Of a stretch of DNA of 64,000 nt, positions 29,019 to 36,808 are shown piece by piece. Below the pieces are notes generated by a model. The model was not told where the DNA came from. It searched no databases and worked only from the letters and a program-made list of their open reading frames with translations. This DNA is from Candidatus Poribacteria bacterium (GTDB lineage: Bacteria > Poribacteria > WGA-4E > WGA-3G). A program made the translations under genes and the position numbers. Positions within the stretch are counted from its first letter, which is position 1; each line of letters opens with the position of its first letter. The stretch lies in NCBI GenBank assembly GCA_965197475.1, contig CBDANF010000003.1:1184001-1248000 (forward strand), read 5' to 3'.

Positions 29019-29171
29019 AGTGAGGATTAATTGAGGGTGGTACATAATTCTTCTTTTCTTGTAGAAGGGTTTGTAACCCTGACACTCTGTTGTAGTTGTG
29101 CATTCACGCGTCTCTTCTGGCAGCGGTATTTATGAGTTATAGTATTTTCTGAGGATGGGCACAGTACTATA

Positions 29172-29315
29172 ACCCAAGTTGCCACCTTTTTGCGGACCCT
29201 CTTGTAGGAGGGGTTTCTAACCCCGATTTACAGTGGAAAACATCAGAGGAAAATCCTTATTTTTCCGATTGAAACAGTGTCTGCTTGCTTAAAATTTGTA
29301 AGTAGCAACTTGGGT
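29172..29315. mobile_element. IS982-like MITE with 7-bp TSD, carrying a REP
   Basis: TIR acccaagttgc/gcaacttgggt flanked by TACTATA on both sides; internal gtaggaggggtttctaaccccgat. Confidence 0.8.
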
Positions 29316-29426
29316 TACTATAGCAAAAATTGCTTTTTACTATCTTTTTCCGGATAGGTGTCTCTATAAGGATGAAGCCACATTGTGTGGCGAATCTAAA
29401 GCTTTTTTGTCAGGCATCCAAGATTA

Positions 29427-30145
29427 TACCATTTCTAAGTTATTATATTGCATTAATTCGTCCGTTGGGTAGAGTTTGCGAAACCCATTATGTGTCAACT
29501 TAAGGAAATTAACCCTTATTTGTATGTATTTCAGCTCCAGCAGGGCGAAAGGTGTCCAGAAAACGCGTATAAAAAACTTCTTTAGCCCCAGCGGGGCGAA
29601 AGGTATATAAAAAACTCGTGATAACAATTTGATCTTGATGTGTGCACCAAAACAGGATACACCTTTCGCCCCGCTGGGACTAAAGATTAGGTAATCACAC
29701 GCTACTATACACCTATCGTCCCGCTGGGACTAAAGACTCATATATGTCCAACTGACATTTCTCAAATGGCTTATATGTCAATATAGACAAGGGTTCTCTT
29801 GAATTGCGGTCATGAAAATGCTTTCTGAAAATCGGATATGATTTTAGATTTTCCTAAATTTTCAATCCAAATAGCACTGTATTGTCCGTTAGAGTAGTCA
29901 TGAATACGCAAAAATCAAGCAAAACTGTCTAAGACAAAGAGCATTTTCATGTTGTTATACGCTCTTAGTGTTGGTAGTTAATGGGTTCCTGACGATTTTG
30001 AGAAATATCAGTCCAATATATATTTTTAAGTTGGCACATAAGGGTAGAGCGACACGAAACCCAACAACAGTGTGACAGAGTTGGGTTTCGCAAAATCTAC
30101 CTAACGGACAGGCTACTATGACAATTTGTCAATTAGATATGGTAT
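29427..30145. mobile_element. Nested MITE/REP composite
   Basis: Outer taccatttctaa/ttagatatggta; inner cccattatgtgtcaacttaa (29484)/ttaagttggcacataaggg (30044); four gccccagcggggc-type palindromes 29533-29732. Confidence 0.65.
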
Positions 30146-30275
30146 TAGCCTGAACCATTCAGTTTAAACGTTGTGTGGTTCCGGCATAATGAGTAAATTG
30201 TAAACTGTGGTTGAGACGTTCACCCGAAACTGCTTGGACGCTTCCTACTACATACGACTAATTGGAGAAAAGAAT

Positions 30276-30719
30276 ATGAGAATATCTGTGAAATTGAGCT
30301 GTATTATGCTTCTCACACTTGTCCTCCTATGTAGATGCGATTGGTTTCGTGAAACAAAAGAGGTCGCTCAAGAAGAACTTGGGCCCAAGGAACTTCTGCG
30401 AAAGTATGAATGGTTTAAAAACGCATCAAGTCAACTTGATAAGAAACAGGCAGATATTAAAGTTTATCAAAAACGTATCACTTCAATGTCAAAGAATTAT
30501 ACTGACATACCGCGCAACAAATGGGCGCGCGAAGACAGAGAGCAATACAACCTTTGGGAATCGGAAGTCGCGGGAATAAAAGCCAGTTACAATACGCTTG
30601 CCGCAGATTATAATGCACAGATGGCAAAAGTAAATTGGCGTTTTACAAATGTAGGACAATTACCGGAAGGTGCAATAAATCCTTTACCTCGTGAATTCAA
30701 GCCTTACCAGGAGGAATAG
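30276..30719 (+). CDS. Hypothetical exported coiled-coil protein (probable lipoprotein)
   Basis: ATG after GGAG, hydrophobic leader with Cys, helical body. Confidence 0.75.
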   Translation: MRISVKLSCIMLLTLVLLCRCDWFRETKEVAQEELGPKELLRKYEWFKNASSQLDKKQADIKVYQKRITSMSKNYTDIPRNKWAREDREQYNLWESEVAGIKASYNTLAADYNAQMAKVNWRFTNVGQLPEGAINPLPREFKPYQEE

Positions 30720-30726
30720 AGAAGTT

Positions 30727-31290
30727 ATGAAATTTAGTGTGTGTCTATTCACAGTTATGATCGGTTTAATTTGTGTCTTTAGTGGGTGTTCAGAACCGTT
30801 TGAACCTGTTTCGAGTTCCGGGGTTAAAACCACCCAGGTTGAGGTGCCGGTAAATGCCGAAGGTATCACTGTGGAACAACAGAATATTCGGGATAGGTTG
30901 ATAATGGACAACCAAGTTGGAAGTATCAAGCACCTTTACGTGATATCGGCATACAGCGGGCAAACCATCATCTACTCCACAGTACGAGGAAAGGTGACAA
31001 GCAGCGGTAAGCGGTTGTCACCAACATCCGTGGTTGTCGGTGATCATGACGAGCACAAAGGTCATGGATATTCTGTTATACCCGGTAGTCATCAATTGGT
31101 CACGGACGAAATTGTGCAAGATGATGGTACGTACGGATCATCTACCCCTTATTTGTATTGGTGGGATACCAAAGGTGTTTACCATCAGCACTATGTTTCG
31201 GGTGGACAAATTATTCATGTTTCGAATGAACCCATCAGCGTAAAAGGTGTTGTCATTAACATGGCAATAGAGAAACCAATGTCCGAGTAA
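30727..31290 (+). CDS. Hypothetical lipoprotein
   Basis: FSGC lipobox; RGKVTSSGKRL, DGTYGSS, YLYWWD; starts 7 nt after the upstream stop. Confidence 0.78.
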   Translation: MKFSVCLFTVMIGLICVFSGCSEPFEPVSSSGVKTTQVEVPVNAEGITVEQQNIRDRLIMDNQVGSIKHLYVISAYSGQTIIYSTVRGKVTSSGKRLSPTSVVVGDHDEHKGHGYSVIPGSHQLVTDEIVQDDGTYGSSTPYLYWWDTKGVYHQHYVSGGQIIHVSNEPISVKGVVINMAIEKPMSE

Positions 31291-31416
31291 TTAGTGATCT
31301 TCTCAAGTCCACATTATAAACGAGTTAGAAATGTTAAAAAGATGAGACAATTTTCTGATAAATTAGTGGACACAGTCCTTGAGTTCCAAAAACCCTTATG
31401 AAAGAGGTATATTTTC

Positions 31417-32496
31417 ATGAGTCAAAAGATATATCGTGCAGCAGCAATCGGACATTCCGGTGCCGGAAACTTCGGTCACGGATTACATACTGCATATAAG
31501 AACATAGAAAACGTTGAATTTATCGCTGTCTCTGACCCTGATGAAGCGGGTAGAGCGAAAGCAGTTGAGGAAACAGGTGCATTACGTAGTTACGCTGATT
31601 ATCGTGACATGTTAGAGAAAGAGACATTAGACATTGTGAGTGTTTGTCCGCGCTGGACATCGGAACATCTCGCGATGGTAACAGCTTGTCTTGATGCAGG
31701 ATGTAGTGTTTACTGCGAAAAACCTATGACAAGCACACTTGCAGATGGGGATATAATTGTTAAAACAGCACAAGAACGCGGCGTAAAAGTTGCCGTCGCA
31801 CATCAGGCTGTTTACCTACCGGCGACACATGCTATTAGAAAGATGCTCCAGGATAGCAAGATCGGCACTGTGCAAGCCATCTATGCCAGTGGTAAACAGG
31901 ATAGACGTGGAGGCGGTGAAGATATGATTGTCCTTGGTACGCATTTGTTCAATATGATGCGTTTCTTCGCTGGCGATGTTTCCTGGATGCAATCGCATGT
32001 CACCAAAGATGGGAAAGAGGTCGCTTATGGTGATGACCACGAACCGACTGAACCTGTAGGTGCGGTTGCTGGTGATTGTATCAACAGTTATTTCGCTTTT
32101 GAGAGTGGTGTTTCCGGGTTCTTTCAGTCACGCAAGGATCAGGCTGGATCAGGTAGATACGGCATGGAGATTGTTGGAAGTGAAGGGATTTTCTCGCTCC
32201 GAGGTGATGTTGCCAACCGACTTATGGTTTATCCCTATCCAGTATTAGTTCCTTCAAACCCAGCACAGGAGTGGGAAGCGATAGACCTTGACGATACACC
32301 TTTTTTTAGAGGAAATGAACTCGCTATTCTTGATCTGATTGATGCAATTGAGAATGATCAAAAACCGATTTCCGCTGCTGAAGATGCTGTCGCTGCATTG
32401 GAGATGATTTTGGGTGCCTATGAATCCCAACTCACAAGTCAACGCGTTCCGTTTCCGATAGCGAATCGCGAACATCCGTTGAGTCGTGGTACTTAA
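31417..32496 (+). CDS. Gfo/Idh/MocA oxidoreductase
   Basis: YCEKPM, GTHLFN. Confidence 0.9.
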   Translation: MSQKIYRAAAIGHSGAGNFGHGLHTAYKNIENVEFIAVSDPDEAGRAKAVEETGALRSYADYRDMLEKETLDIVSVCPRWTSEHLAMVTACLDAGCSVYCEKPMTSTLADGDIIVKTAQERGVKVAVAHQAVYLPATHAIRKMLQDSKIGTVQAIYASGKQDRRGGGEDMIVLGTHLFNMMRFFAGDVSWMQSHVTKDGKEVAYGDDHEPTEPVGAVAGDCINSYFAFESGVSGFFQSRKDQAGSGRYGMEIVGSEGIFSLRGDVANRLMVYPYPVLVPSNPAQEWEAIDLDDTPFFRGNELAILDLIDAIENDQKPISAAEDAVAALEMILGAYESQLTSQRVPFPIANREHPLSRGT

Positions 32497-32559
32497 GCAG
32501 CACACCCATAGGTGCCAATTTAGCGGTCCTACAACCCTTCTGGGACTTAGCGCGTACTT

Positions 32560-32925
32560 TTTTCTTAAACTGACACATATCTGTTCCGCGCAGCAACTTT
32601 AGGACCTGTCCAAAGTCCGCCATCAGCAGGAGGCGCAGAAAGTGCAGCCTCAAGTGCTGCTTGCTGTGTTTCATCCAGAAAACGACACCTTCCATTGTTT
32701 TTGCGTTTGTCTCGTAGTGCTTCTTCACCCGCAGCGTTATAGCGTTTGAGTAGTTTGCGAACCTAGTCCGCAGTGCAACCTACAATATCAGCGACTTCGC
32801 GGGGTGTCCTCGGATGTGTGGTGTCAGCAAGAAGCCAAATAATATGCCAATGTGTCCGTTCCCGAGAACATTTACATTCAAGATACCTTTGTCTAAGAAC
32901 TTCTGTCGTAAAATGGGGAAAAACC
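32560..32925 (-). pseudogene. IS630-family transposase N-terminal remnant
   Basis: RERTHWHIIWLL...EVADIVGCTAD*VRKLLKRYNAAG...DGGLWTGPKV with in-frame TAG. Confidence 0.75.
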
Positions 32926-33026
32926 CGTTGTTTAGTGTTTTTGTTTACATGTGTTGACAATAACATATCTAAAAAATAAACGCAATAAGTAGTTTTGGAC
33001 TTGCAACAAGCCATTGAATTTTTCAC

Positions 33027-33056
33027 TTGACTCTCTTTTCTCCCACATGTTATACT
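33027..33056 (+). promoter_or_regulatory. Sigma70-type promoter inside the IS1595 left end
   Basis: TTGACT-N18-TATACT with extended -10 TGn. Confidence 0.6.
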
Positions 33057-33060
33057 ATCC

Positions 33061-33139
33061 TAACGTTGTTGGTAGGGAATCTCATCTGTCTCGCTTGAGG
33101 CAGTCCCTACCAAACCGAATGAGATCGGGAACAACGTTA
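33061..33139 (+). ncRNA. Candidate structured RNA (3-way junction with pseudoknot), unclassified
   Basis: P1 33061-70/33130-39; P2 33071-78/33104-11; hairpin 33086-33103; P3 33115-18/33125-28; TCTCAT/ATGAGA loop-bulge pairing. Confidence 0.6.
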
Positions 33140-33199
33140 AGGTTAAACAACGTGATCCTATAAACAAAACACGTACAACCCTTACCATAAGGGAATATC

Positions 33200-33436
33200 A
33201 TGGTACTTTTAGTGTGGCCACTTCTTGTATTTGCTTACTATAAGCAAAAATACACGTTGAAAAACTGGCTTTTGTTTTTCGCTATCATTGGATCTATAGT
33301 CACTGTTCTCGGTGCTCGAGAATACGCATTAGTAGCATTGGTAGCCCAAATTGTCGGCATACCTATTATTTTTCTGTCGGCAAGATTCACCGCTTGGTGT
33401 ATCAAACGGTATGTAAACCGAAAGAAAACAGACTAA
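33200..33436 (+). CDS. Small hydrophobic membrane protein (IS passenger)
   Basis: 78 aa, 2-3 TM segments, basic tail, RBS AAGGGA. Confidence 0.65.
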   Translation: MVLLVWPLLVFAYYKQKYTLKNWLLFFAIIGSIVTVLGAREYALVALVAQIVGIPIIFLSARFTAWCIKRYVNRKKTD

Positions 33437-33484
33437 CCCAACAACGAGGTGCCCCTGTCCCCTCTAACTCACAAAGGAACTATC

Positions 33485-33820
33485 ATGTTAATCATATTTC
33501 CAAAACCTGAACAAATCACTGGATTTTGTCCATTAGCCGTAAATCTTAATATTTATGATGAAATTGTGATCATCAAGAACAACGAATCAAACTTGTTCAA
33601 TCTGACTCTGTTGAAACATGTAGACGCTCATGGATCGAACCAATCAACTTTTCTCTACAATTTGGGCATCTTCCAATCCGAGTCAGATTGCTATACATTG
33701 TTCCAAAATATTCTCGAAGCTTTGAATTCGGATCAAAAGACATTCGAGCTTCCGCCATCTGTGCTGCAAGCACCGCCTGAACCCGCGGATCATGCAAAGA
33801 AACGCCCTGGGTACCTTTAG
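33485..33820 (+). CDS. Hypothetical protein (IS passenger)
   Basis: RBS AAAGGA then ATG 33485 (alternative GTG 33449). Confidence 0.65.
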   Translation: MLIIFPKPEQITGFCPLAVNLNIYDEIVIIKNNESNLFNLTLLKHVDAHGSNQSTFLYNLGIFQSESDCYTLFQNILEALNSDQKTFELPPSVLQAPPEPADHAKKRPGYL

Positions 33821-33826
33821 TTTCAC

Positions 33827-34711
33827 TCATCTCATACTCTCATTAACAAACTTATCAAAGATGCTGTCAATGCTCCTATAGTTATACTTGTAGCACGCCT
33901 CTGCGACATACAGGGGCGTATATTCAGTCCAATAGTGGTGATGTGAACCATACCAAGCGCGTTTGAGAAGCGACCAAAACCCCTCAATCGTGTTTGTGTG
34001 GACATCACCGTCAACAAATTGCTCTTGATGATTGATGATATGATGCTTCATATCTCTACCGAGTGCGAGATAAGCATTATATTCATCGGTCATCAACTCC
34101 GAATCCTGAACTTTCACGGCTCTTCGGATAAAGTCTAAAATAGTCCGTCCTGTCAAATCCCTTGCAAGTTGTGCTACAACTTTCCCACCGCGTTGGACAG
34201 CCCCGATGATTGCGTCTTTATCAGTGCCACGACCACGCTTGGCAGGCTCCGCATCTGCTTTCTTGTTCGGCTTGCGAGGTTTACCCCCGATGTAAGTTTC
34301 ATCAGCCTCTATGATGCCTTGTAATAGCACGTTGCTACCTTTCTTTGCCATTTCAGCACGGATACGAGTCATTATAAACCATGCAGTTTTCTGATTCAAG
34401 TCTAAATCACGACTCAACTGGTAACTGGATAACGACTTCTTCGCATTCACAATCAACGAGATCGCCAAAAACCACTTCTGAAGTGCTATCTTTGTCCCGT
34501 GAAACACCGTGCCACACGTCACCTTGAAAGTAGCAGTGCAATCATGGCATTGCCAGCGTCCGATGCGTCCCAATTCCGTCTCTGTCCGTTCCGCAACGTT
34601 TAGACTATCACAATGCGGACATCTTGGTTCACCACGCCACCGAATATATTCCAAATGCTCAATACATGCTTCTTGGTCAGGAAAACGCTCCATTACCTTC
34701 AATAAATCCAT
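33827..34711 (-). CDS. IS1595-family (ISXO2-like) transposase
   Basis: Zn ribbon CPHC...CHDC; IEADETYIGG, MTDE, HTNTIEGFWSLLKR. Confidence 0.95.
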   Translation of the reverse strand: MDLLKVMERFPDQEACIEHLEYIRWRGEPRCPHCDSLNVAERTETELGRIGRWQCHDCTATFKVTCGTVFHGTKIALQKWFLAISLIVNAKKSLSSYQLSRDLDLNQKTAWFIMTRIRAEMAKKGSNVLLQGIIEADETYIGGKPRKPNKKADAEPAKRGRGTDKDAIIGAVQRGGKVVAQLARDLTGRTILDFIRRAVKVQDSELMTDEYNAYLALGRDMKHHIINHQEQFVDGDVHTNTIEGFWSLLKRAWYGSHHHYWTEYTPLYVAEACYKYNYRSIDSIFDKFVNESMR

Positions 34712-34950
34712 CAGATACTCCTTGAAATAGGAGTTGCTTTTTCTGACGGATTTCTGATATAATACCAGATAAGATTAGAACCGTCAAAAAGCAACTCGCT
34801 TTTTGTGTTCATTTAGGGGGCTACCAACCCCCTACTTTCTTATCTATATTGTATCATAGTTGCACAATTAAAACAAGTGGAAATGTAGTCTACATCTGTG
34901 TTTGTAGCGATTTTTACATGTTTGTTGCAAGTCCAAAACTACTTATTGCG

Positions 34951-35228
34951 AATTTTAATAGCCGAGGAGTAGCACAAAACCATTCCCCATGAACACGGAA
35001 TGCACCAAAATGAAGATGAATTTGCTTTTCTTCTCTACGAGCTTCCTCCTCTGTATCAAACGGAATGACACCTATATCCCATATTGGAGATTCGTTTCCA
35101 GTCTGTAGAACGGCTTGACGAGTTAATAGATCTGTGCGAGTACGACCAATTTTAATAAAATCAGGTTGTTTGTCACCGAAATTGCTCTTCGCGAAAAAGT
35201 ATACTATGGGTTGACTTTCATTTTGCAT
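34951..35228 (-). pseudogene. GIY-YIG/T5orf172-like nuclease truncated by IS1595
   Basis: VYFF...IKIGRT...LQTGN...E..IH..F...RVHGEWF; the last 11 codons of the ORF are read from the IS end. Confidence 0.78.
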
Positions 35229-35250
35229 TATTGATTACTCCTATGAGGTA

Positions 35251-35415
35251 GGCAGCCACATTGAACTGGGTTGAAATTCCTCAGAATCTTGACTTGAACA
35301 GATCTTTTAGGCGAATGTAAGTTAGTCAATGTGAGCGATGGATAGGATAAGCAAAGGTCAACGCTGACCTTTCCTGCCAGAGCAATACTATACTACATTT
35401 TCGACCAAAAGTCAA
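35251..35415 (-). promoter_or_regulatory. Promoter plus structured 5' leader of the nuclease gene
   Basis: TTGACT-N17-TATAGT; helices GGCAG/CTGCC, AAAGGTCA/TGACCTTT, CACATTGA/TCAATGTG. Confidence 0.5.
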
Positions 35416-35475
35416 ATTTATTTTTACACTTTTGCAATAAGGACAAGGAACGAAGAGGTATACAGAAAATCAACG

Positions 35476-35858
35476 TTACTCTGTAACGGTTTTCTTAGCA
35501 TCTTGTTCGCTAAGTATGAAAAAATTACTAATTTCCGCTGAAACAGCCTTCTCTATGATCTCTTGAAGGTAAATATCTATCTCTAACTGACGACGCGCGG
35601 CGTTTAAGGCATCCGACTGTACAACTCAAGACTTGTTTGGATTGTCAGTTCTCCTGAAAAAGGTTTATCCGGCACTTTCCCTTGTTCTTCACAAACTTCA
35701 AAGTAAACTTCAAGCGACTTCTGCATTTCCTCCCGAAGTTCAGCTACAGATGCACCGTAGAACGTGATCACATCCTGTGTATTAATCACTGTTCCGTGGA
35801 ATAGATCTATTTCTGGATCAAAATCTACGACTCCGATATAGCCTCTGAATTCAATCAT
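35476..35858 (-). pseudogene. hicB: HicB-family antitoxin, frameshifted, no adjacent hicA
   Basis: YIGVVDFD...FHGTVIN..DVITFYG...PDKPFSG; shifted frame continues ALNAARRQL.. Confidence 0.75.
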
Positions 35859-35860
35859 GG

Positions 35861-36808
35861 TTAAAAACCGAGCTGCTTATCAACAACGTTTTTCAATGCC
35901 TCACCCTTCAAATACCGCTCAAGGTTATCCAAGAAAAACTCGGTAATACGTCGCATGCGGTGCTGTGAACCCCCAGCAGCATGCGGCGTAATGATAACAT
36001 TATCCATATCCCACAACAGACTCTCTTTATCCAGAGGTTCAATCTCTGTCACATCCAACCCCGCCCCCGCGATTTTACCGGCTTGCAAAATTTCAATAAG
36101 ATCCGCTTCATTAACAATGGGACCGCGGGCAACGTTAATCAGATATGCTGTTGGCTGCATCACAGACAAGTTTTCAGCATTGATCAATCCACGTGTCTCC
36201 TTAGTCAATGGACAAGCAATCATTACAATATCTACGCGACTCATCATGTCTGCAAGTTTTTCCATCGGCATCAGTTCGTCAACGTTTTCCGGCTTTTCGG
36301 TGCGGTAAGCATCCACAGCGATAACGTGCATATCAAATCCTTTTGCGCGTTTCACCATCTGCATGCCGATACCACCTAACCCGACAATGCCGATTCTGAA
36401 TCCATCAATCTCAATCATTGGAGATTTACTGCCACCCCACTGATGATTGTCTTGGTTACGTGTGAAATGGTGAATACCACGTGTTATACCGAGCAGGAGC
36501 GCAAACGCTTGGTCAGCGACGTGCGTGCCGTAAAGTCCAGCGGCGTTTGTCAAGACCACATCGCTTTCGCGTATCGCAGGATACATGTGTCTGTCCATAC
36601 CTGCACTGGATGCCTGAATCCACTTGATATTGGGCAGGAGCGGGAAAATATCCTCGCTACAGAAACCGAAAAAAATATCAATATCTTTGCCTTCTTCAGC
36701 AATTTCCTCGCGTGAACCCGGCATGACGTAGGTATGTTCATCACCAATAATGTTTTCTAACCGCTTTAACTGGTCGTCTTCAACTTGATGTTGTAATAAT
36801 ATCTTCAT
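35861..36808 (-). CDS. D-2-hydroxyacid dehydrogenase
   Basis: GLGGIG, INVARG, LDV..EP, TPHAAG. Confidence 0.92.
   Translation of the reverse strand: MKILLQHQVEDDQLKRLENIIGDEHTYVMPGSREEIAEEGKDIDIFFGFCSEDIFPLLPNIKWIQASSAGMDRHMYPAIRESDVVLTNAAGLYGTHVADQAFALLLGITRGIHHFTRNQDNHQWGGSKSPMIEIDGFRIGIVGLGGIGMQMVKRAKGFDMHVIAVDAYRTEKPENVDELMPMEKLADMMSRVDIVMIACPLTKETRGLINAENLSVMQPTAYLINVARGPIVNEADLIEILQAGKIAGAGLDVTEIEPLDKESLLWDMDNVIITPHAAGGSQHRMRRITEFFLDNLERYLKGEALKNVVDKQLGF

Follow-up and report, generated by a model that had tools for sequence, protein, structure and literature searches.

Here we describe a small structured RNA encoded in a 64,000-nt stretch of a Candidatus Poribacteria bacterium genome (contig CBDANF010000003.1, positions 1,184,001 to 1,248,000 of the forward strand). 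We refer to this whole stretch as the window, and coordinates follow its numbering unless a contig or locus is named. The RNA lies directly behind a promoter, just inside one end of an insertion sequence (IS) of the IS1595 family. As judged from aligned sequences, its core fold goes far beyond chance, with every helix and a pseudoknot kept by compensation in dozens of relatives, and we regard the predicted structure as real with near certainty. It belongs to an RNA family that is widespread among sampled Poribacteria and precedes several unrelated kinds of selfish gene. We tentatively favour the reading, held with somewhat less than even confidence, that the RNA is a cis-acting, switchable leader that sets the expression of the genes downstream of it.

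A compact RNA locked by a pseudoknot

The core RNA (Table 1) is predicted to fold as a three-way junction of helix P1, a long P2–P3 arm and a short P4 hairpin, in the order P1(P2(bulge,P3))(P4). A 7-bp pseudoknot between the one-sided bulge and the P4 loop locks the junction and is the only helix that crosses the others. Junction strands measure 0 nt between P1 and P2, 1–4 nt between P2 and P4 and 0–3 nt between P4 and P1; the few positions left unpaired differ between the two subtypes of the RNA introduced below. The minimum free energy (MFE) of the + strand is −39.3 kcal/mol, compared with −22.96 ± 3.33 for 200 dinucleotide shuffles (z −4.9, with no shuffle equalling it). The − strand folds more weakly (MFE −36.4, z −3.9).

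An earlier note on this DNA, made from its letters, had pointed to a pseudoknotted RNA directly behind a promoter inside a transposon. We located each of the parts it named, namely the promoter, the helices, the bulge, the linker and a second copy of AACAACGU, and the placement proved accurate, with the core beginning 4 nt past the −10 box and lying within the IS. P4, which had been drawn as CCGA/UCGG with the loop AUGAGA, stands as a hairpin but not in that extent. Relatives favour a stem of 3 bp (CCG/CGG) and an 8-nt loop, the last seven nucleotides of which pair with all seven of the bulge.

Compensatory change in every helix

The genome holds five related IS subfamilies, A (the window's) to E. 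Their RNA sequences differ, and every helix and the pseudoknot are kept by compensatory changes. The bulge and loop strands of the pseudoknot read AUCUCAU and AUGAGAU in subfamily A, UUUCUAU and AUAGAAA in B, AUGUUAG and CUAACAU in C, CUGUUAG and CUAACAG in D, and AUGUUAC and GUAACAU in E. When all five RNAs were aligned with MAFFT, B and D fell out of register, so we built two covariance models: R1 for the A/C/E type, which is the window's subtype, and R2 for the B/D type, from eight sequences.

We then scored pairing in relatives, using the best-scoring loci returned rather than a random draw. In 33 distinct A/C/E-type sequences, the window's among them, 98.5% of 1136 cells of the model-fitted alignment (A9) were paired, as against 31–43% when the strands were slid, and 31 of 35 pairs showed compensatory change. 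The corresponding alignment of 29 distinct B/D-type sequences (A7) was 96.9% paired (36–44% slid), with compensation at 28 of 33 pairs. Model-fitted alignments lean toward nested helices; the pseudoknot count is free of this bias because the pseudoknot is absent from both models. Its helix was paired in 99.1% of cases in A9 and 97.0% in A7, with six of the seven pairs compensatory in each. A structure-blind MAFFT alignment of 29 B/D-type sequences (A8) gave 91.5% pairing overall, 95–97% in P2, P3 and P4 and 97.0% in the pseudoknot helix, compared with 35–44% slid, and 31 of its 38 pairs were compensatory. Run unaided on A8, RNAalifold recovered P1 to P4, with compensation at 22 of 26 pairs. 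Covariation among homologues, which the earlier note had named as a check of its proposal, thus extends to all helices including the pseudoknot in both sets of sequences.

Wobble pairs recur in both subtypes, as in P3 pair 31–38 of the A/C/E type (10 U–G) and P2 pair 21–57 of the B/D type (9 G–U). Because these would be A–C on the other strand, the folded molecule is the + strand, which agrees with the strand preference noted earlier for a G–U pair in the window. Fold score, covariation and strand-specific wobble pairs all argue for a structured, + strand-specific RNA with a true pseudoknot.

Promoter and transcription

The promoter in front of the RNA is predicted to be of the sigma70 type with an extended −10 element. 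Such promoters, allowing up to 3 mismatches in 12, ended 4–12 nt (mostly 5–6 nt) before the RNA at 33 of 33 A/C/E-type loci, compared with 22 of 590 random positions in the same loci, and 3–6 nt before it at 25 of 30 B/D-type loci, compared with 17 of 545 random positions. By the usual spacing from a −10 box, the window transcript should start at about 33062–33064, at the foot of P1, which would leave 7–9 of the 10 P1 pairs in the RNA. Homology among free-standing copies, which lie outside IS1595 elements, begins at the −35 box, so that the conserved unit comprises promoter, RNA and a short tail. Sequence evidence therefore points to transcription of the RNA from its own promoter.

Contigs from four sponge metatranscriptome runs of one study map to the IS, and in three of the runs they span all or part of the RNA region at 100% identity (X1 at 32980–33079 and 33050–33258, X2 at 33020–33193, X3 at 33112–33267). 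Such contigs register presence in an RNA library and are silent on starts, ends, strand and level, with uncovered parts being uninformative; we take them as weak support for transcription.

A second partner for the 5′ arm of P1

We denote the 5′ arm of P1 as a, its 3′ arm as a′ and the second copy of the 3′ arm as a′2. The window's a′2 begins 7 nt past the core and offers an 8-bp complement to the 5′ arm. Among A/C/E-type loci, 29 of 33 have a gapless complement of at least 7 bp starting 5–11 nt after the core, compared with 116 of 798 combined pairs of dissimilar arms and tails. P1 varies at all ten of its pairs while the complement is kept, so a′2 tracks P1. In the B/D type, the helix a:a′2 is 89.9% paired compared with 22–60% when slid, and one of its pairs is split between C–G (11 sequences) and U–A (10). 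A first control in this subtype gave a mean run of 5.9 against 5.1, with most arms sharing TCG. The proposal that the second AACAACGU is an alternative partner for P1 thus gains support from conservation and covariation in both subtypes.

The setting of a′2 varies among loci. Where the gene behind the RNA encodes TnpB, a purine-rich spacer (GGAG, GAGA or AGGA) precedes a′2 and an AUG lies within it. In the B/D type, a small hairpin has a′2 as its 5′ strand and, as its 3′ strand (a2), a copy of the P1 5′ arm; UUUAAC or UUUUAC comes next. MFE folds comprised the core and then the a′2 hairpin and U's at four loci (L104, L101, L111 and L108), and the a:a′2 helix instead at L118.

Several IS-borne copies (L012:176–220 and the tails of L125 and L130) share a short frame that opens at the GUG or AUG inside a′2 and encodes similar peptides (MNQTVNIIFIESAT...). 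The frame may encode a conserved leader peptide, or its conservation may reflect only that of the RNA sequence.

The host insertion sequence

The transposase places the element in the IS1595 family, with matches to PF12762 DDE_Tnp_IS1595 (E 1.6e-36) and to the N-terminal zinc ribbon PF12760 Zn_ribbon_IS1595 (E 1.4e-9). Promoter and RNA sit just inside the terminal repeat at the transposase 3′ side and point inward (Table 1). The 151 bases around the RNA have six identical occurrences in the genome. IS1595 elements carry terminal inverted repeats and generate an 8-bp target duplication. One such duplication, AAACTAAA, is present at the copy near C3:592372, one of four complete copies compared; the window copy has no target duplication at its flanks (32965–32981 and 34950–34966). 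On its left the flank matches that on the right of the copy near C3:241933, and on its right it matches that on the left of the copy near C3:2788504; together with the missing duplication, this suggests that recombination between IS copies has caused rearrangements.

The four sister subfamilies, whose transposase DNA is 77–85% identical to the window's, share a common layout of repeat, promoter, RNA, variable cargo and convergent transposase. Proteins resembling that of cargo ORF 2 (ORF, open reading frame) end the cargo of subfamilies B and D and also follow a free-standing RNA copy (L108), as judged by eye and unscored. Transposase relatives in public genomes (77 loci) come almost entirely from Candidatus Poribacteria, which are sponge symbionts. 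Some close IS relatives, 1.4 kb long, are cargo-less, and in them just the promoter and RNA separate the repeat from the 3′ end of the transposase. Other relatives are without the RNA. Because the cargo-less relatives retain promoter and RNA, the RNA belongs to the IS backbone and not to these passenger genes.

Other features lie in or beside the IS. A long, nearly perfect inverted repeat (GAGTTGCTTTTTCTGACGG ... CCGTCAAAAAGCAACTC) at 34730–34799 brackets the sequence immediately before the transposase start codon; it includes a TATTATAT box on the minus strand and gave a chance-level match to mir-957 in our Rfam scan. A hairpin formed there may limit transposase expression. A gene for a 104-aa T5orf172/MUG113 protein (34914–35228, − strand; PF13455 and PF10544) abuts the IS and overlaps its terminal repeat with its 3′ end, and the IS may have inserted into, or beside, this gene. 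The same protein family also occurs downstream of the free-standing RNA copy L101. Several short repeats at 29170–30150 (~80–340 bp, 77–100% identical) recur at many genomic sites and may be miniature mobile elements or IS remnants.

Table 1. Features of the RNA and its host insertion sequence, in window coordinates.
Feature	Position	Strand	Description
Sigma70-type promoter (predicted)	33027–33056	+	−35 TTGACT 33027–33032; 18-nt spacer; TG 33048–33049; −10 TATACT 33051–33056 (extended −10 TGtTATACT)
Core RNA	33061–33139	+	79 nt, nearly all bases paired
P1	33061–33070 with 33130–33139	+	10 bp
P2	33071–33078 with 33104–33111	+	8 bp
One-sided bulge AUCUCAU, pseudoknot 5′ strand	33079–33085	+	7 nt
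P3	33086–33092 with 33097–33103	+	Loop GCUU; one U–G pair
Linker AAA	33112–33114	+	
P4 hairpin	33115–33128	+	Stem 33115–33117 with 33126–33128
Pseudoknot 3′ strand AUGAGAU	33119–33125	+	P4 loop
a′2: second AACAACGU (33146–33153) plus G	33146–33154	+	Alternative partner of P1 5′ arm; contains GUG with 3-codon frame
Small hairpin CCCUUA-CCA-UAAGGG	33179–33193	+	Encloses likely Shine–Dalgarno AAGGGA (33189–33194) of cargo ORF 1; MFE fold of 33061–33205, single sequence
Cargo ORF 1	33200–33436	+	78 aa, hydrophobic, without Pfam family
Cargo ORF 2	33485–33820	+	111 aa from ATG 33485; longer frame from GTG 33449; without Pfam family
Transposase	34711 to 33827	−	294 aa, convergent with RNA and cargo
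Whole IS1595-family insertion sequence	32981–34950	− (transposase strand)	1970 bp, six identical copies in genome
Terminal inverted repeat adjoining RNA, CGCAATAAGTAGTTTTGGACTTGCAACAA	32981–33009		29 bp, perfect
Other terminal inverted repeat, transposase 5′ side	34922–34950		29 bp, perfect

An undescribed family in Poribacteria

We surveyed a sample of genomes of the phylum; these are kin, and the counts record occurrence and not independent events. R1 found matches in 99 of 151 Poribacteria genomes, with 1–15 per genome and well over 400 in total. They fell in 81 of 99 and 17 of 26 genomes of two families and in 0 of 25 genomes of the other seven. R2 matched in 28 of the 151. The window's own genome has 26 matches, 15 to R1 and 11 to R2. 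With default filters R1 missed B and D of this genome, and with filters off it scored them weakly, at 19.3 and 17.8 bits. In our own descriptor scan of the loci, false matches in tandem repeats and AT-rich DNA were set aside by eye. From IMG/VR, R1 searched 80 loci and gave five credible matches on four predicted viral contigs at 66–76 bits; these loci had been pre-selected by a palindromic, unspecific pattern that returned at least 120 stretches. So far, the range of the family is Poribacteria and a few predicted viral contigs only.

One R1 match is degenerate (44.6 bits, at G000:C3:1701532–1701606, equivalent to L013:2533–2607 on the − strand). Its bulge repeats the P2 5′ strand and is not complementary to the P4 loop; this is a variant or else a copy that has decayed.

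Scanning window positions 30000–36000 against Rfam 15 (4227 models, E ≤ 10) gave three chance-level matches elsewhere and none at 33027–33160. The same models found nothing (E ≤ 1) in thirteen loci that cover all five subtypes and free-standing copies. The covariance-model scan suggested in the earlier note thus upholds its word "unclassified", leaving hammerhead, HDV, pistol and the other families unmatched. Among the papers listed in searches on Poribacteria and their insertion sequences, IS1595 passenger genes, TnpB- or GIY-YIG-linked RNA motifs and sponge-symbiont noncoding RNA, we found no description of this RNA. The word "Poribacteria" has no occurrence in the main text of PMC5737381, and a term look-up in bioRxiv 10.64898/2026.10.21.760802 likewise returned none. 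A motif named after Poribacteria has reportedly been catalogued; should it be in Rfam 15, our scans place the present RNA outside it. We conclude that the RNA represents an undescribed family, with a small chance that a related motif has already been named. The kind is familiar, being that of a structured leader or element-borne regulatory RNA; the family, the fold and the switch design, in which two identical partners face one strand, are new.

Genes that follow the RNA

Many family members stand outside an IS1595 element. A terminal repeat of the CGCAATAAGTAGTTTTGGACTTGCAACAA type (0–5 mismatches) lies 49–107 nt upstream of the RNA at 15 of 33 A/C/E-type and 10 of 30 B/D-type relatives. The other 18 A/C/E-type loci are without an upstream IS repeat, and 20 of the 30 B/D-type loci have neither IS repeat nor transposase within 1.5 kb. 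In 12 of these 20 free-standing loci, the first downstream ORF to reach 80 aa lies within 215 nt and has the orientation of the RNA.

The same-strand genes behind the RNA are strikingly of the selfish kind, comprising TnpB, GIY-YIG, T5orf172, integrases and IS cargo. All five tested ORFs that start 5–10 nt past the core encode TnpB (OrfB_IS605 plus Cas12f-like TNB). GIY-YIG nucleases follow at five loci (L132, L136, L147, L121 and L228), and single loci have a T5orf172/MUG113 protein (L101), a Schlafen/AlbA_2 protein (L098) or an HSDR_N_2 nuclease-like protein (L111). L121, a locus with two RNA copies, has two tyrosine recombinases (integrases) downstream. DUF805 membrane proteins were found by Pfam scan at L141 and by eye at others, and many downstream proteins are without any Pfam family.

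Tandem cores with a period of ~84 nt follow one promoter beside an IS1595-type repeat at two loci, with two units in L274:1090–1230 (−) and three in L275:1080–1310 (−). There is no clear ORF behind the tandem cores of either locus. In L274, a strong terminator-like hairpin lies ~150 nt downstream of the array.

A second conserved element, GUGCAUAACGCAC ... ACGCUAUGCAC, comes after the RNA in many loci (L009:160–270, L011:190–300 and the tails of L095, L100, L126, L128, L129, L133, L138 and L149). Its outer 7 nt can pair (GUGCAUA/UAUGCAC). Immediately behind it comes a short ORF of ~43 aa whose product is highly basic (MAKKATGTRVR... in subfamily B), and the element may be a further structured leader or a module for a small protein. 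The TnpB-linked copies L135, L144 and L151 have in common a block, GCTTTAGC...GGGGAGGAATGCCCGC, ~40–75 nt upstream of the RNA, in which a small hairpin is possible. This block may mark the left boundary of an IS200/IS605-type element with promoter, RNA and tnpB inside it.

Discussion

A real structure, its own predicted promoter, a leader position ahead of same-strand genes and a second pairing partner that covaries with the first can be combined in several ways. In our favoured but tentative reading, the window RNA would be the 5′ leader of a two-gene cargo that runs convergently toward the transposase gene. Arm a would pair with a′ to complete the locked fold, or alternatively with a′2 a few nucleotides downstream. 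Since a′2 overlaps expression signals, being an SD-like (Shine–Dalgarno-like) spacer and start codon in the window's subtype and the 5′ half of a terminator-like hairpin before U's in the other, the partner that wins would set cargo translation or read-through. Within the IS it might also set antisense transcription into the transposase gene. The input to such a switch would more likely be shape-dependent (folding kinetics, Mg2+ or temperature, a host protein, or kissing between copies) than a metabolite. The earlier claim that the RNA controls the downstream passenger genes survives to this extent: a control role is the best reading, while its specificity for these genes is contradicted by cargo-less relatives and by the unrelated selfish genes that the RNA precedes elsewhere.

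Several observations weigh against a switchable leader. The two subtypes would respond with opposite sign, as a formed P1 would free the start codon in one and permit the terminator-like hairpin in the other. These terminator-like hairpins are weak (3–6 bp, −1.6 to −6.6 kcal/mol, 3–5 U), and the a′2:a2 hairpin is 74% paired on the MAFFT alignment. The controls for a′2 are not fully independent, as arms share sequence and loci are kin. In the window, a′2 holds only a GUG with a 3-codon frame and the cargo ORF starts 46 nt further on, so any link to cargo translation would be indirect. RNA-library contigs could derive from DNA, and the transcript ends given here are predicted. Finally, tandem arrays of two and three units without a clear ORF fit an RNA that acts alone.

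That last point leads to the alternative that survives best, which we consider possible though unlikely: a stand-alone, stable small RNA, carried by mobile elements and serving as a trans-acting RNA or a decoy for proteins, for instance against host defence or as a sponge for a host factor, with the genes behind it incidental. A strong promoter of its own and a compact, almost fully paired fold with little conserved unpaired sequence would suit such an RNA, as would the hairpin and U run right behind the B/D-type core, the single promoter of the tandem arrays and the terminator-like hairpin after the two-unit array. So would its presence on four predicted viral contigs and in selfish elements of at least three unrelated kinds, and its confinement so far to one phylum. 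Against this, most loci have a same-strand ORF starting within tens of nucleotides, the window's subtype is without a terminator after the core, and the TnpB loci place a start codon inside a′2 behind an SD-like spacer, which an independent small RNA gene would not need.

We give a lower probability to a passive module at the 5′ end, a stable fold at +1 that would shield the mRNA from 5′-end-dependent decay and insulate it from its insertion context while sensing nothing. At nearly all loci transcription is predicted to begin at the foot of P1, the downstream genes are very diverse and shape is conserved rather than sequence, all of which such a module would explain. A simple hairpin would suffice for this purpose, however, and both a 7-bp pseudoknot compensated in all lineages and a covarying second partner exceed what protection needs.

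The earlier note had also considered a riboswitch, a ribozyme or an antitoxin-like RNA, and these fare poorly. A small-molecule riboswitch, in which a junction-bound ligand would stabilise P1, seems improbable to us. The architecture does resemble junction-type aptamers, with a P1-closed three-way junction and a tertiary lock; an alternative pairing of P1 overlaps expression signals, and tandem copies exist. Almost all bases are paired, however, and the junction strands are short, not conserved and different between subtypes, so that neither a metabolite pocket nor a catalytic core is likely. The genes are transposases, nucleases and integrases without a metabolic or transport theme, and no Rfam riboswitch family matched. 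The paucity of conserved unpaired nucleotides that could form an active site makes a new class of self-cleaving ribozyme, processing the leader or releasing array units, less probable again; the strands of the junction leave too little room for a hammerhead core, and the Rfam 15 hammerhead, twister, twister-sister, pistol, hatchet and HDV models gave no match. This is despite the compact pseudoknotted fold, the tandem arrays and the frequent occurrence of known small ribozymes near integrases, phage and mobile genes. An antitoxin-like RNA of type I or III finds neither an overlapping antisense target nor a ToxN-like gene by Pfam among the downstream proteins tested.

A DNA-level element folding as single-stranded DNA, whether an attC-like recombination site or a subterminal transposase-binding structure, is scarcely credible: an imperfect palindrome beside an IS end, pairing conserved free of sequence and tyrosine recombinase genes behind two RNA copies at one locus are outweighed by the promoter at a fixed distance, the many G–U pairs that would be A–C mismatches on the other strand and the 20 of 30 B/D-type loci with no IS repeat or transposase nearby, and attC sites are not known to contain a 7-bp pseudoknot, nor do DDE transposases use folded single strands. 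We also rejected a DNA operator made of repeated arms, as arm sequence differs among subfamilies within one genome.

Beyond a switchable leader at single loci, we raise a bolder and decidedly speculative proposal. The RNA may be a new regulatory class that unrelated selfish elements of one phylum (IS1595, TnpB/IS605-type, GIY-YIG/homing-type nucleases, integrases and predicted phages) have adopted as a common control device. Its locked fold would sense the state of host or element, candidate signals being copy number, through kissing in trans of the pseudoknot strands of identical copies, and a host protein. It would then move the P1 5′ arm from one to the other of two identical partners, thereby switching translation or termination.

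If the leader reading holds, a widespread and strongly supported structured RNA family is without an Rfam 15 entry, and one RNA device links several unrelated kinds of selfish DNA. This would suggest host-specific restraint, or expression, of transposases and homing nucleases. The RNA would further offer a clean system in which to study two identical partners competing for one strand. It would bear on 5′-side regulation of TnpB genes, which is of practical interest for TnpB-derived tools, and would bring an RNA layer into the biology of mobile elements in uncultivated sponge symbionts.

Comparison with known systems

Among element-borne RNAs, IS10 RNA-OUT and the IS200 leader/art200 pair are similar in that a stable structured RNA arises from a promoter just inside an IS end and likely tunes element expression. 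RNA-OUT is antisense and overlaps and complements the transposase translation start. The RNA described here lies at the opposite IS end, ~690 nt beyond the transposase stop codon and transcribed toward it, and also occurs outside IS1595 elements. We ruled out an RNA-OUT-type antisense regulator because the RNA, at 33061–33139, does not overlap the transposase start codon at 34711 on the other strand. The TnpB omega-RNA and the IscB HEARO RNA are likewise structured, element-borne RNAs adjoining TnpB genes. An omega-RNA is found at the tnpB 3′ end or the element right end, with its guide segment beyond that end, whereas our RNA stands 5′ of tnpB behind its own promoter, shows no apparent guide segment and also precedes other genes. 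At five TnpB loci it ends 5–10 nt before the tnpB start codon, and an omega-RNA is ruled out.

In type III systems, short repeats in tandem encode the antitoxin RNA, and an endoribonuclease toxin gene (ToxN/AbiQ, CptN or TenpN) comes behind them. ToxI-like RNAs and the RNA studied here have in common a promoter-proximal pseudoknot, occasional tandem units and a terminator-like hairpin before a protein gene. The units here differ in being ~80 nt and usually single, with tandems at two loci, and the downstream proteins are unrelated to each other. Among 39 downstream or neighbouring proteins scanned, and among the window cargo ORFs, there was no ToxN/AbiQ-type Pfam family, and we therefore set aside a type III antitoxin.

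The defining parts of several folded elements are likewise absent. Hammerhead ribozymes have a three-way junction whose strands hold a conserved core of ~7 nt, 3–4 nt and the cleavage dinucleotide; the strands here are too short and no Rfam model matched. HDV-like ribozymes form a nested double pseudoknot in which P1 crosses P2; here the bulge–loop helix is the only crossing one, again with no Rfam match. An integron attC site is a folded bottom-strand hairpin with R″/R′ core sites, found in cassette arrays beside an integron integrase, and needs neither promoter nor pseudoknot. Our RNA is not an attC site because of its conserved promoter, the G–U bias toward the transcribed strand and its covarying pseudoknot, and its P1 arms vary freely without a fixed core site.

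Stabilising structures at 5′ ends include ompA-type hairpins, and the exonuclease-resistant xrRNA of flaviviruses combines a three-way junction and a pseudoknot with threading of the 5′ end. The RNA described here resembles them in being very stably folded right at its 5′ end, and xrRNA also in its junction and pseudoknot. It differs in that its pseudoknot joins a bulge to a loop instead of threading the 5′ end, and in its extra covarying partner.

Junction-type riboswitch aptamers, of which the purine riboswitch is an example with a P1-coupled expression platform, also use P1 to close a three-way junction, keep two arms parallel through a tertiary loop contact, and engage P1 strands in alternative pairing over a start codon or terminator-like hairpin. 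The absence of visible conserved junction nucleotides or of a visible ligand pocket and a gene context of TnpB, GIY-YIG, T5orf172, integrase and IS cargo set our RNA apart from the metabolite riboswitches. Its tertiary contact is a 7-bp Watson–Crick helix from an internal bulge to a loop, and its competitor pairs with the 5′ arm of P1 and not with the 3′ arm.

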